Source: Balanoglossus misakiensis (lineage: Eukaryota > Animalia > Hemichordata). Taken from it: DNA of 64,000 nt. The DNA is taken from NCBI GenBank assembly GCA_040954595.2, contig CM082585.2, positions 11,139,995-11,203,994 on the forward strand, written 5' to 3'. Positions 44,518-58,500 of the stretch are shown here, piece by piece. The first letter of the stretch is position 1. Every line of letters starts with the position of its first letter. The notes under the pieces were generated by a model. The model was not told the origin of the DNA and made no database searches. It saw only the letters and a program-made list of their open reading frames with translations. Both the position numbers and the translations under genes were made by a program.

Positions 44518-44760
44518 TTATAATTTTAAAAGTCCCAAAAAATTGGCACCCTCTTCCCTTGATATTCCATTTGGGTTGCCTTGCTCGTCCACGGGTAGAA
44601 CGACAGATACAGTTTGGTGTGGTTGTATTAGTGTAATCCCGGCCGTGTAACATGAGTGGTACGGGTATTTCGACTCAAAGTACTTGCATGACAAGAATTT
44701 CTTTTTTCCAACATTCACCGAGTAGCCAACAAAGAGATTGTTGTCATCTTTAAAGGTCAC
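44518..44760 (-). CDS. TNF-C terminal exon T3
   Basis: acag|VTFKDDNNLFVGYSV...FLSC...YHSCYTAGI...ANFLGLLKL*. Confidence 0.85.
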   Translation of the reverse strand: MTFKDDNNLFVGYSVNVGKKKFLSCKYFESKYPYHSCYTAGITLIQPHQTVSVVLPVDEQGNPNGISREEGANFLGLLKL

Positions 44761-47700
44761 CTGTAAGTAAGGCACAACCAGAAGTAGGAGTCAGGTGGCG
44801 AGGCCCTTTATTTGTTGTTTAACCGTGGGGGCGGGAAAGATGATCGTCAGGAGAGTTTGACCAGCCCGACGAACGTACTGTCGGGGCTCATGTTGATCAC
44901 GCGATCGGGATACCGAATGTGAACTTTGAGCTTGCTTCCCTGCTGAAATCTGGCTATCCCGCCCGTAAAACAGGTATTATACTTCGCCCCAGAATAAGCA
45001 GTGTGGGTACAGGACAGGATTGCGTCATCATCGACAGACACAGCGTGGCTCATGTTCTTGTCATCATAATATAACACCTGGAAGCAGATAAAACACGTTG
45101 TCATGTTGTGGACTCCTGACTTCAATTGGAAAATTTAGGGTCTAATATGATCACATCTGTGTACTCTTTCACTTTGTTCTGTACATATTTTCTGGAATAA
45201 TTTTCACAGCCCTTTAAAACTGTTGAGATGAGCTCAACAACGGTTATCGTTCACCCTGTATAAAATAACCTTTAAACTGGCGGCCATAGTCAGAACTAGA
45301 CCCGCCATTAAAAACAATGCCTTTGTGCTCACTGTGTACAATACAACACTGTCCTTGTGTCAAATGTGAATAGAATCGGCCTGAGTGATGGCTCCGGACA
45401 TGGAAACATTGTAACAAAATAGTCGTCTGGTCGCCATATTGGATCGTGTCACCGAACAAGTTGACGTGTACATGTACAACATCACAGTGTATTTTCCTTG
45501 TGCCAAATGTGAACCAATTTGGTTCTCACAGCCCAAGAAACGACAGCGGACGCGTGAACGGATGGAGCTTAGTCTATGTAGCTTAAGCTAACTAAACATC
45601 TGTTCACTTAAATTTGATTATTCCTACAAAGGTTGTCACTGGGGTCAGTTGAACTTCCGCTTCATACTGTATTTTCACTGTTACTGTTGACTGTGCGGGC
45701 ACATGAACAAGACCTCCGGTATAACATGAGCTGAGTTCCGGGGCTCTGCTATATATATAATTAATACATCTGAAAAAGAGGTCTCCGCCAATGTCAATAT
45801 AGTGACCAACAAATGGATTGCCTTTATACGTTACCTAAAAATCAAGACAGAAAATAAGCAATGATTAACTCATAATACATTTATGTTGAACTCTGCACAC
45901 ATACTAGTTTCAAACAAAGCTTGAATTGTGTTACTTGGCTACAAACCCATTGCTACGGTAATTTATCAAGTCTCGCAAGATCTCGTGATGAGCAGAATAT
46001 GGTCTATTGAGATCACATTTACCTGGCTATATACATAGTACAGGCCAGCCTCTTCCACGATAATCTCCCCGTCTATGTTCTTTCGAAATTTACTCTTGTC
46101 ATCGTTCGTCATCCAGTCTGCGTACTTCCAGAAATTAATGGTTCCATCTGTAATTAAAACCAAATGTTTCAATTTTTGAAATCAAAAAAGAAAACATAAT
46201 GTTCACCGTCTTATTTTCATTTTAAAAACACAACACTTCTTTGTATTTTCGCCATAGAGTTAACACACAGAGGGTGGCCATTTTGATTTTCAAATCTGAG
46301 GCAATTTTGTTCGCCCATTCAAAACTTTGCACGGTGACCCCATTTTTTATTCTCAATCATAGTACTGTACAAAATAGCAGAGTTTCAAACTATTCATTTG
46401 ACACAAGGAAATTAAAATCCCAAATCAACTACCTTACCTTTAATCTCAACAACGCCTCCATTTTGGCGATCGCCCACAAAATGAGCCGCAATGACACTCG
46501 ACTAAAACAGATTTTAAGAAGAAATGAACAAAGTGTCAATCGTCTGACAGAACGAAAGTGAAAGCGAAAACTCACGTGGGCCAGTGTGTACAGCCGCTTC
46601 GTTATCCCCTTCTAAATGGGCAGCGATTAACTCAGGCTGGTAAAAACGAACATACACAACCAATATTTAGAAGTAATTTTCACGACTGATTGTAACGTCA
46701 AATGTATTGGTTTTCACAAACCATTATAACAATGATGATTTGGAATTTATAATTTCTTAATTTATGCCAATCTGATGGAGATCTCTGGATTTATTTTGTG
46801 CCTAGCTCGGGCAATGAAAATACACACAGCACCACACGTTGGTTTTGCGCTTTAGCGTATAACAGCGGCAACAACAACAAAACAGCAGCAACAACAACAA
46901 CAACAACAGCAACAAATTGCAACAAAACACAAGCAAAATATCCCCAAATACTGTTATGCTTAGTGAAGAATTAGAGGAAGGGGAAAGTTGAACTAGACCT
47001 TAATTAATTCCCACTATATTTCCTATTAGACAAAAAAGTATGCTTACCGCTTGGCCAGGTTCACCTGCAAGGCAAAACACAAAGGGATAAGTTTAATATG
47101 AGAAAAAAATACTTTTCGGTCGTTGTTAGAGAATTCTGACTCGAATAGTCCATATAGGATAATTTTAGTCTAGGTTTTCCTAAAACTTCTTACACATAAA
47201 AGAACTTAATGATGCCAGCCAGAATTAAATTTAATATATTTGAACACAGTTTTGTTGATGAAGTTAAACATATTAAATCATACACATTCACGTACCTGGT
47301 TCTCCCTTTTCGCCTTTTTCTGAAATATAACGGATAAAAATGGAAAACAGTCAGTTCAACTTAGCTGTTATTGAGCTTGGCTAGAAATTTAAGTGTACAG
47401 CAACCATCTCAAATCTCCTTCACAAAGTCCTGTCATGTTCCGGGACTGTATAGCTACTTCAAATAAGCAAAGGTTCAAAGGTACTTATACTTACCCCCCT
47501 TCCGCTTTTTGCCCTTTTTCTCTCCTTTTTTCTTTCCTCTTTTAACGCGATCTGTGGAAAAAATCAACATAATAAAAACATTACACTTCAAAGCAACAAG
47601 AATTTCATAATTTGCCTCTTTCCTGTCCTCAAAAGAACTTCAGTGACAAGAACAAACGTTAACGCTTTAAGTACCCTGATGAAACTCACCCTTTCCGATA

Positions 47701-55500: not shown

Positions 55501-58500
55501 ATATCAGGTCATGTCAATAAATCGCATACACTGAATGCCCTATGGGGTCCCTCCCTGCCTACCCAACCTTAACACAAGACGATAAAAACTATCGTTAATC
55601 TACTGAATGTTCATTAAAACACCCAAGATAGATCGAAAACACGTACCTTTGCCGGCACGGACGGCTTTATCAAAATCTCCGATGAAGTGAGCCGCAGAAA
55701 CGGGGAACTAAAATGGCGGACACACAGGAATGAAAATATCAGTAAATGTTAAAACTTACTTGTACCTGTATGGACAGCTGCTTCGCTGTCTCCTTGGAAG
55801 TGAGCCGCGACAAACTGGTAAGGGGGGAACGGAAAATGTAGCAAATGGAATTTACTGTGGAATAATATGCAGCGACTAACATTTTTCACAAAACACGGGA
55901 ATGCAGTTGATGATCATGCATGCCTTGCACAATACTGAATGGTCTTAATTATACATTAAAGCCCCAGTATTTCTCGTGTGTATTCATTTTTCATCATCGA
56001 AAAATGCCCGTTTTTCCTGAAAACGAGAAATACTGAGGCTTTAAGTTGTTTTTCTGTACATGGTTTTGACTAACTTGTGATTCTTTCATTTTCGATTTAT
56101 AATTTACCATGGTTCGAAACTGCATGATTTTTAGATGATTTAAGCAATGTAGTTAGTAATACAGTTATATATTATTATAGTACTTTTTACTTTCCGCTCA
56201 CCTTTGGGGCTGGTTCACCTGGGGCACCTGCAATGAAAGATGATTAAAACGAAAGTTAAATGATATCAGCTTCTGAGTATCAACTGGGACTCGATAAACC
56301 GACAACAAAACACAGAACCTAACCGTCCCACCGAAGAGGTCGGCACTCATAATGTCTAAGCCCCATTGGCATCCATGATCCTGTCGTTGTTTCTCTCTCT
56401 CTCCTAAATCGTGTGTTACTCTCAATCTCTGTTTTCGAAATTTGAGCCACTTCCCTCGTGTAAATAAAGTCGTCTTTGAGACAATACACGGGAGAGCTGC
56501 TTGCCTTTATCTCCCCTGTCTCCCTTCGGTCCTTGATGGCCTGGTACCCCTGGAGCTCCATTGACTCCCGACAGACCGTTTGAACCAGGTTCTCCCTTTG
56601 GACCAGGTAGACCCGCTAAACCAGGTGGTCCCTTTGGACCAGGTAGACCCGCAAAACCAGGTGGTCCCTGTGGACCAGGTGGACCTTTGCCAGAACAGAT
56701 TAAAACATTCAATATCTAAGTGCTCATGCACGTATTCTCTTCAGCTTTTCTCTCTGTACTATTGCCACACATTAATATGTTTCTAAGTTTTAACATATTT
56801 CTTTACGTTACCACAAAAACTGAATAGAAAAGACAAAGGTTTTATGCATGACTGTTAGTTGGATGCAGTATGTTCTCATTAAGAGGATATTACTAAATTA
56901 AGAAGAATGATTTAGTAACTTGTCAACTAATGCAAATAATTTTATACCTAGGGCTAGACTCACGTATTATCTTCAAACTAAATAGTTTGATCTTGTTTTC
57001 GGAAGGGTTATTAAATATTTCTGCGGGAACCCTATAGGCTTCCATTTTGACAGAAATCTGTGAACATTCTATTTATCACACATGCGATATTTGATTAATG
57101 TGCCATGCACTTGAGCTAAAATATCGTGCTCCTATTTGTACATCCCATGCGTTCACGTTCCGAAAGTGAATCTTGAACCGACCTCGTTTGCACCTTGTCT
57201 TGCACTTGCGCTTTCGTTTTCGTTTCTGTTTCTCTGAGACTGAAAGGCGAGTTTGCGTACGGTATGTGACACCACGTACACGATAATTCAATAACGAAAG
57301 CTACCTGATTTCCCAGAAGACGCGCTACTTATATGATCACTGGTCATGTTTGCGACGACTATAATTTGCGCATAAAATTGAAACTCGCAAAACAGTGATA
57401 TGATCATGCAAATTTATGATCTATAACGGAAATTTGACATTATATAAATGATTAAAATATTTTAATACATAGTATGTAGCATGATATAATATGACTTTAA
57501 ACCATGAATGACAATTTACTTATTGAATATGTTCAATTCTTGTGATTATCCATGTGGCCTTTTCAACTTACTGAGTAATGGCAGTTTTTATCTGAAGATG
57601 ATTTCATGCCCATGCAAGGATGAATTTGTTCATGTATGGGTATTTTATGATGGTTGTTACAGCAACGAAGGTGATTGATTTACAGTAACTAACAACATAT
57701 AGCACTTATGCGTAATGATAACGTTTTCTCACTTTCATAATTTTTAAAACATACCTGCACATTCTGGCTTGCATTTTTTACCTTTGTCTAGAGAATAACA
57801 AAAAGTATACCTTCAGGACCCAGTCTCATCATTTCAGTTATTTTTTACATGGTTGTCAAATGTGCACGACCTTGAAACTGCAAATATTTATTTCATGATA
57901 ATCTTGACACTCAGATACTGAACATCCTCATAAAGTTGTATTTCAAAGAACAGTTACTTCGACTCTTAAATTTCACCAACAGAAGTTAAATACACACCTG
58001 TCCTGTCCTTCCTTCGTCGTTCTCCTTTGTTCTTTCTTCTTTTATCTGTGGATTAAGTAATTTATGTTACTAATATTCGCCATTCATAAGAAGCTACAGC
58101 AACGTGCCTCTTTGAGATTTACAGACGATAACGTTAATATGCAAGTCTGGTGAACGTTTTCGTCAGAAAGCAGCCAATGCTGTTGATCAAGCATTTGCAG
58201 CGTGTGTGTGACGTTGGATTGTTCACAAACTCTACGAGTTAACGATAGATTATTCTGTCAGTCGTTAGAATGCTAGACACATGATATTAGTTTGTTGATC
58301 GTGGTCACTCTAACGGAGTCTGCTGGAAGACTAAGATCACCCACTTACGCAATTTCTCAGAAACAGGAGCCGCATCACTTTGTGGCTCCTCCGACTCTGT
58401 CGCTTCATCGTCCCTTTTTTGTCGATTCTCCTCCAGATGGATGTCATCGTAACCTTTGACCTCCAAGGGGCGATCACTGATATCTAAAATTCTTGACTTT

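Follow-up and report, generated by a model that had tools for sequence, protein, structure and literature searches.

Duplicated exons that exchange the second half of a binding domain, and with it the preference for a partner, are known from FGFR (forms IIIb and IIIc) and from neuregulin-1 (alpha and beta), the latter being a ligand; both swaps are two-way only and concern other folds. On the minus strand of a 64-kb stretch of DNA from the acorn worm Balanoglossus misakiensis (contig CM082585.2; the whole stretch is referred to here as the window) two neighbouring EDA-like tumour necrosis factor (TNF) ligand genes, C and D, were identified. We consider it highly probable that each of them splices one of two alternative strand-A exons and one of three alternative last exons into its TNF domain, giving six domains from gene C and twelve from gene D, for which differing receptor preferences are predicted. 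The feature itself is real and under selection, and very likely it is spliced as proposed.

Among described systems vertebrate EDA is similar to genes C and D in its order of membrane segment, furin-like site, collagen run and TNF domain, and in having its splice difference directly after YSQ in strand C. There the change amounts to two residues (Val307-Glu308 distinguishes EDA-A1 from EDA-A2), which have been proven to switch the receptor (PMC9918506, the available portion), whereas C and D exchange a duplicated exon of 76-82 residues among three versions, together with a two-way strand-A exon, and the effect on receptors is predicted. The class of mechanism is known from the fly PGRP-LC. The 3' variable regions of fly PGRP-LC, pip and CG42235 have, like C and D, duplicated 3' cassettes behind a shared exon, and long-range RNA pairing is involved in their choice (Pan et al. 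2018, PMC6191721, in the part of the text accessible to us). According to the same part, PGRP-LC also exists with three forms of its domain, there an immune recognition domain; unlike C and D it is a receptor, and its cassettes are swapped under competition between docking site and selectors. Genes C and D, in contrast, encode ligands, swap half a domain and show a single helix, for which no rival partner was found, around the two distal exons.

The preliminary description of this DNA had called the arrangement Dscam-like. As in Dscam1, independent slots of duplicated exons multiply combinatorially, but the isoforms of C and D number tens rather than thousands, the main slot is terminal, and the A exons exclude each other by reading frame and by an intron of 52-74 nt. 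Neither gene showed an internal cluster with many exons governed by docking sites and selectors; the only internal cluster has two exons, and no docking site was present among the strongest helices. The closer analogue is alternative last exons as in PGRP-LC. Tandem duplications of terminal exons, to which the arrays of C and D are alike, have been surveyed (PMC9013439), and no mention of TNF was found in the portion of that survey available.

The strand-A exons were named A1 and A2, the shared exon K, the optional exon X and the last exons T1, T2 and T3; all coordinates below are those of the window, and all exons lie on the minus strand. In gene C, A1 (46636-46576) and A2 (46501-46438) are followed by K (46147-46023), which encodes strands A'' to the first half of C and ends with YSQ in phase 0, and then by T1 (45834-45604, 76 amino acids), T2 (45077-44847, 76 amino acids) and T3 (44760-44518, 80 amino acids). 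In gene D the corresponding exons are A1 (55814-55760, with a possible alternative donor 6 nt earlier), A2 (55707-55647), X (55175-55137), K (54561-54425, again ending YSQ in phase 0), T1 (54083-53847, 78 amino acids), T2 (52868-52632, 78 amino acids) and T3 (52510-52262, 82 amino acids). As had been proposed, each of the six last exons follows an AG, is entered in phase 0 and remains open to its stop, and the AAH exons are duplicated in both genes as A1 and A2. Both loci thus hold homologous T cassettes behind one upstream donor, which is the arrangement of an alternative last-exon array. The intron between A1 and A2 measures 74 nt in C and 52 nt in D, and the distance from the T2 stop to the T3 acceptor is 86 nt in C and 121 nt in D. 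When K was compared with the window by tblastn, no copy of it was found within either T array, the best placed of the weak matches elsewhere being in the neighbouring TNF genes A and B; neither were private K, A or membrane-segment exons found between the T exons in the window sequence. An identical stretch of 11 nt lies just upstream of the T2 acceptor in C (45095) and D (52889); its length is within chance range and its position is the same.

The reading frame restricts the combinations. Open models were obtained in 6/6 cases for gene C and in 18/18 tested for gene D, while inclusion of both A exons, or of none, led to an early stop in C and D alike. Exactly one A exon is allowed, because A1 and A2 each begin in phase 0 and end in phase 1. 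Gene D additionally has the optional exon X, 39 nt long and in phase 1 at both ends, and therefore six TNF domains from C and twelve from D are encodable in the window. The earlier count of 2 x 1 x 3 per gene, 12 in total, stands for gene C (6) and has to be raised for gene D to 2 x 2 x 3 = 12 by way of exon X, which makes 18 altogether.

Upstream, exon 1 of gene C (48396-48064, start codon tentative) encodes a cytoplasmic tail and a hydrophobic membrane segment; among five relatives compared, Glandiceps LOC144442193 was its best N-terminal match. The stalk exons of C are 47897-47690, 47551-47495 (with a furin-like RVKR), 47319-47296 and 47064-47048 (short collagen-like run), ending in phase 0. 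Exon 1 of gene D (59106-58756), likewise coding for a cytoplasmic tail and a hydrophobic membrane segment, is identical to the Ptychodera flava orthologue at 45/109 residues, and is followed by stalk exons at 58508-58349 (RQKR), 58045-57998, 57787-57755, 57239-57183 (basic), 56684-56505 (collagen) and 56227-56202, also ending in phase 0. Both gene models consequently read membrane segment, furin-like site, collagen run and TNF domain, with a long collagen exon in D and a short run in C. The hydrophobic run in exon 1 of each gene is that of a type II membrane protein, and the furin-like RVKR (C) or RQKR (D) with a collagen run upstream of the TNF domain agrees in both with the EDA subfamily. 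The collagen exon of gene D ends in a GC donor, and this exon and the basic one are skipped in some P. flava isoforms, which leads to extra stalk variants.

The exon layout, the frame rule and the lack of private exons were read from the window, as was the inverted repeat described below; the joins of K to T1, T2 and T3 were taken from database models of relatives, not from raw RNA. A profile built from the six last exons retrieved 17 longer proteins, all from P. flava and all containing PF00229, while a search started from the two K exons returned 15 candidates, none of them a homologue. RefSeq labels isoforms X1-X34 of the P. flava orthologue of gene D (XP_070538496-532), of which 33 were retrieved (X22 was missing from the set). 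These 33 include all six classes of A x T, with 4-8 models each, and form 12 distinct A/X/T domains, exon X being included in some and skipped in others. In the relatives the sequence upstream is identical among isoforms. RefSeq alternative variants require transcript support for their introns.

For gene C the relatives offer fewer models. In the C-type gene of P. flava (XP_070538491-494) isoform X1 ends in T2 (XP_070538491, 58/76 identical to C-T2) and X2 in T1 (the tail of XP_070538492, 38/76 identical to C-T1), while X3 has the A exon of its siblings joined to another copy of K and T1. Glandiceps talaboti LOC144442193 has A2-T3 (X1), A1-T3 (two models, X2 and X3) and A2-T2 (X4); its T2 is identical to C-T2 at 54/76 residues, and its T3, in X1-X3, is full-length and identical to C-T3 at 39/80. 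The A1-type exon is the one used in Glandiceps X2/X3, and the A2-type exon is used in P. flava and in Glandiceps X1/X4. Combinatorial use of the 2 x 3 exons, as suggested in the preliminary description, is accordingly present in gene models for all six A x T combinations of the gene D orthologue and for 4/6 combinations of gene C orthologues (A2-T1, A2-T2, A2-T3 and A1-T3). The four P. flava C-type models (P0036-P0039) join a D-like N-terminus to a C-like TNF domain, which suggests a recombined gene or a merged model. Another P. flava protein, XP_070553352 (P0092), of 570 residues and encoded on another contig, has two TNF domains, the second of which is D-type (A2-X-K-T1-like) and fast evolving.

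The Pfam TNF domain (PF00229) was matched by 5/6 T exons at E<=0.1 and by 4/6 above the curated cut-off, and the K exons of both genes match positions 2-36 of the same profile. C-T3 has no Pfam match and yet is similar to D-T3 (E 2.6e-9). Within a gene the last exons are 22-36% identical, and the proportion of synonymous differences (pS) is 0.58-0.90 over all 15 pairs of T exons, so that synonymous sites are at or near saturation. C-T2 and D-T2 are 51% identical, with a nonsynonymous divergence (dN) of 0.37 and a synonymous divergence (dS) of 2.55; the K exons of C and D gave similar values (0.38 and 2.62). Simulated without selection to 0.3 substitutions per site, a single exon retained its AG and its frame in 9% of cases without indels and in 0.9% with indels. 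Compared with P. flava, gene D is identical at 67/78 residues of T1, 58/78 of T2 and 56/82 of T3, but at 29/45 of K and at the fraction of exon 1 given above; judged by these counts each of its last exons is at least as conserved as K and more so than exon 1. A1 of C and A1 of D are identical at 12/18 residues; A1 and A2 within a gene agree at 8/19 and 9/18.

The isoforms of the relatives carrying T3, the most divergent type, were folded (Glandiceps A1-K-T3 and P. flava A1-X-K-T3). Both were predicted to form a beta-sandwich, with predicted local distance difference test (pLDDT) values of 64-98 in 10-residue blocks, lowest in loops, and both had a long helix where the membrane segment lies. 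The top Foldseek match of the Glandiceps model was EDA-A1 (1rj7, E 3.6e-12). The best single-ligand sequence matches in the PDB were EDA-A2 (E 4.5e-13) and EDA-A1 (1.4e-11), then APRIL (1.1e-10); the three-domain APRIL/BAFF chain scores above EDA by summing domains. In the models the boundary between K and T is predicted to cut strand C, with the T exon providing the remainder of the domain through strand H. In several open reading frames an unrelated start gives way at Q-VYY to sequence nearly identical to the EDA-A2 chain, so vertebrate EDA probably has an intron at the same point. The two-residue difference of EDA arises from alternative donors at that junction.

EDA-A1 contacts EDAR through Q256, S258, A259, Q261, D265 and D273 in patch II and through Y310, Y311, K340, T341 and Y343 in patch III (PMC9918506, as far as its available portion goes). 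Alignment to a vertebrate EDA-like protein places Q256, S258, A259, Q261 and D265 in the A slot and every patch III residue in the T slot, with the positions of R289 (patch I) and D273 located in K. With the contacts as given in that portion, two of the three patches at which EDA touches EDAR are covered by the swapped A and T slots. Patch III positions vary among the T exons, and core positions such as C332 are kept. On these grounds the isoforms of C and D are predicted to differ in receptor preference.

Each gene also contains a long-range inverted repeat in non-coding sequence around T2 and T3, a feature absent from the preliminary description. In gene C the 5' arm lies at 45175-45150 and the 3' arm at 44143-44118, 375 nt beyond the T3 stop; in gene D the arms are located at 53180-53160 and 52056-52036, the latter 206 nt beyond the T3 stop, all on the minus strand. 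The 5' arms share an identical 18-nt core, which is the longest stretch of exact identity shared by the non-coding parts of the two genes, and only 1/1000 null samples equalled this length. Allowing up to three mismatches, the arm motif occurs four times in the 64 kb, only at the arms (0.09 expected; 0/100 shuffles gave four). The helix is present in the minimum-energy fold of both pre-mRNAs, with pair probabilities of 0.94 and 1.0. Across the gene each arm pairs best with its counterpart, by 9-18 kcal/mol, and the helix of gene D beats all 200 nulls. Competition between a docking site and selectors was not found, each arm having one clear partner and no short strong helix linking the K intron to the regions before T2 or T3.

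Other pairings were seen in the same regions. In gene D a second helix of 17 bp (52638-52622 with 52232-52216) is nested in the first and encloses T3 alone; its pair probability is 0.95, its energy is within the null range, and it has no clear counterpart in gene C. An inverted repeat between 46411-46395, in the intron after C-A2, and both 45509-45493 and 45366-45352, in the 3' untranslated region (UTR) of T1, was discarded, being within the null range and having no counterpart in D. Pairing of the 5' arm of C with the A1 donor region was weak (-19.8 versus -29.8 kcal/mol) and is not claimed.

The polyadenylation signal AATAAA was located downstream of C-T2 (44812), C-T3, D-T1 (52961) and D-T3 (51799 and 51696). 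C-T1 lacks it (only AATACA was found), and D-T2 has none of eight variants. In C and D alike the proximal AATAAA lies inside the loop of the helix. Polyadenylation alone is thus not an easy explanation of the choice of last exon, because C-T1 and D-T2 lack AATAAA and the proximal signal is in the loop. It is proposed that the donor of K would select one of the three T acceptors. Transcripts extending past T3 could form the long-range helix, looping out T2, T3 and the proximal AATAAA, and this would most likely bias the choice towards T1. The resulting isoforms may then address different TNF receptors.

A search of representatives gave 295 matches at E<=0.001, of which 150 were listed, 86 were compared with the window exons and 10 were looked up. 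A swap of last exons at the same junction was found in gene models of Glandiceps, of the crinoid Antedon and of the amphioxus Branchiostoma. In a Branchiostoma hybrid (LOC144923575) three different last exons stand behind one K (X1, X2 and X3, with mutual identities of 31/80, 38/78 and 47/78), and a model of B. belcheri chains three such last-exon pieces, one of them of a fourth type. Antedon mediterranea (XP_071951134-137) has two last-exon types. Among the members of the queried clusters, sea star and sea urchin have one last-exon type each, to which T2 is the closest window type. Amphioxus X3 and X8 differ by an optional segment of 11 residues with an RQ-x-GEV motif similar to exon X of gene D, and amphioxus X9/X10 end in a truncated last exon. 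Three vertebrate EDA-like proteins (P0080, P0084 and P0086) show a three-residue difference after strand A, at approximately the place of exon X.

Trees were constructed from the last exons only (78 columns, rooted on vertebrate EDA; 16 rows for the hemichordate tree). In the hemichordate tree the T2 exons of C and D group together with support of 89/94 and the T3 exons with 62/78, while grouping by gene was borderline rejected by the approximately unbiased (AU) test (p-AU 0.046). The array is likely to predate the duplication that gave rise to C and D. In the wider tree a group of amphioxus exons has 67% support and the pair from Antedon 90%, which leans towards separate expansions at one boundary, a point that 78 columns cannot settle. 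A bolder proposal, which we offer tentatively and think rather unlikely, is that an exon swap after YSQ already diversified the EDA-type ligand in the ancestor of deuterostomes. Acorn worm, crinoid and amphioxus would have kept the arrays, each exon tuned to a different TNF receptor and chosen by a conserved long-range RNA helix, and the EDA-A1/A2 pair of vertebrates would be a reduced form at the same intron. The optional RQ-x-GEV exon common to gene D and amphioxus fits common descent of the array; the groupings of the amphioxus exons and of the Antedon pair lean the other way.

Three other accounts of the last exons have to be considered. The window holds a tandem cluster of four TNF ligand genes, and in one P. 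flava model an A exon continues into a second copy of K and T1, which could be taken to mean that every extra last exon belongs to a gene of its own. This is refuted by the layout, with no K, A or membrane-segment exon between the T exons and gaps of 86 and 121 nt between T2 and T3, and by the identical upstream sequence of the relatives' isoforms, and we give it practically no credence. It is very improbable, and largely refuted, that each gene has a single functional last exon and that the remainder are relics of partial duplication, spliced as noise. The truncated T3 model of the P. flava C-type gene and the truncated last exon of amphioxus X9/X10 speak for this reading, but all six exons (6/6) are intact at saturated synonymous divergence, whereas neutral survival at 0.3 substitutions per site was 0.9-9% per exon, and exon-by-exon orthology extends across three hemichordates. 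Neither neutral decay of the extra exons nor a separate gene for each, the two outcomes against which the preliminary description had set its proposal, was thus found. More room must be left for the possibility, in our view doubtful though by no means negligible, that the last exons are all spliced but that a single receptor is bound by most of the isoforms, or that these serve as decoys or as subunits poisoning the trimer, so that the array tunes stability, strength or control through the 3' UTR and not the choice of receptor. Patch I (the R289 position) and D273 do lie in the shared K, each last exon brings its own 3' UTR, and T2, being closest to the single last exon of sea stars and urchins, could be the one signalling form. 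On the other hand D-T1 is more conserved against P. flava (67/78) than D-T2 (58/78), the patch III positions differ among T exons while the core (C332) stays, and in vertebrate EDA a two-residue change at this very junction switches the receptor (PMC9918506, same portion).

The inverted repeat could itself be something other than a splicing element, either what is left of the ends of a mobile element or a site for a protein or microRNA in the 3' UTRs. The arms bracket about 1 kb in the manner of terminal repeats, and the helix core shows no compensatory change; however, the motif occurs nowhere else in the 64 kb, 18 nt are identical between genes whose synonymous sites are near saturation, and every arm prefers the other arm gene-wide by the margin given above. 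We regard these alternatives as rather unlikely. Several observations weigh against the proposed receptor-diversifying splicing of C and D and its control by the helix. The isoform support comes from automatic RefSeq annotation of other species, in which some combinations may be enumerated rather than observed, and A1-T1 and A1-T2 of gene C are absent from the relatives' models examined. Isoform labels are missing from three paralogues in P. flava (P0006, P0014 and P0092). Isoform X4 of the P. flava C-type gene starts T3-like (17 of the first 32 residues), after which the match stops, and the exon may be broken there. The acceptors of D-T2 and C-A2 are weak (85th and 77th percentile, by a crude score with 2/26 sites misplaced in its training set), and the EDA-EDAR contacts were transferred from vertebrates at about 25% identity. 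The helix of gene C alone (-27.7 kcal/mol) is within the null range (5% point -30.3), its core has two mismatches and no compensatory changes, and the tree test was borderline, with a p-AU of 0.37 for the placement of T1.

Two more TNF ligand genes follow gene C on the minus strand, B (39511-36800) and A (34340-30900), both as incomplete models. Gene B has its K and T regions in one exon, and gene A has an intron later in the domain; no extra last exons were seen in either within the window sequence, as far as these incomplete models go. The flanking genes, named from their translations, are presumably TAF9 (22600-20970, minus strand), a PH-domain protein (64000-62440, minus strand) and mitochondrial elongation factor G (8273-11600, plus strand). 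A 22-bp hairpin at 55956-56044 (95% complementary, 45-nt loop) was found in the intron upstream of D-A1. A short palindromic repeat, probably a small mobile element, occurs at 45954-46008, at 54870-55072 and at approximately 30680-30870, that is, in introns of C and D and past gene A.

No description of a duplicated-exon swap in a TNF ligand was found in the paper listings and opening parts of abstracts searched, drawn mostly from open-access literature. Within the portions available, two reviews of TNF-superfamily evolution (PMC7674686 and PMC12843592) do not mention splicing or isoforms, and PMC13367198 mentions neither splicing nor exons; a third review of the subject retained the largest splice variant for its own synteny searches (PMC11762692). 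The RefSeq sets of P. flava, Glandiceps, Branchiostoma and Antedon contain the same swap at the same junction as unnamed, X-numbered models, for which no describing paper was found. What appears not to have been described is that a TNF ligand uses such a swap, that the swap recurs at the EDA-A1/A2 junction in three deuterostome phyla, and that C and D have a helix in common.

The evolution of the TNF family is usually counted in genes. Should the arrays be used in the predicted way, 18 TNF domains would come from two genes, and the number of ligands in invertebrate deuterostomes would have been put too low. The helix shared by C and D offers a precise, mutable target for testing the choice of last exon, and the isoforms, as natural half-domain swaps on a fixed scaffold, would be useful for mapping receptor choice. 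One intron is associated with a specificity switch in vertebrate EDA and with exon arrays in hemichordates, crinoid and amphioxus. Given this shared position, the origin of the EDA-A1/A2 switch becomes directly testable, the alternatives being an array inherited from an ancestor and one modular boundary that was used repeatedly.

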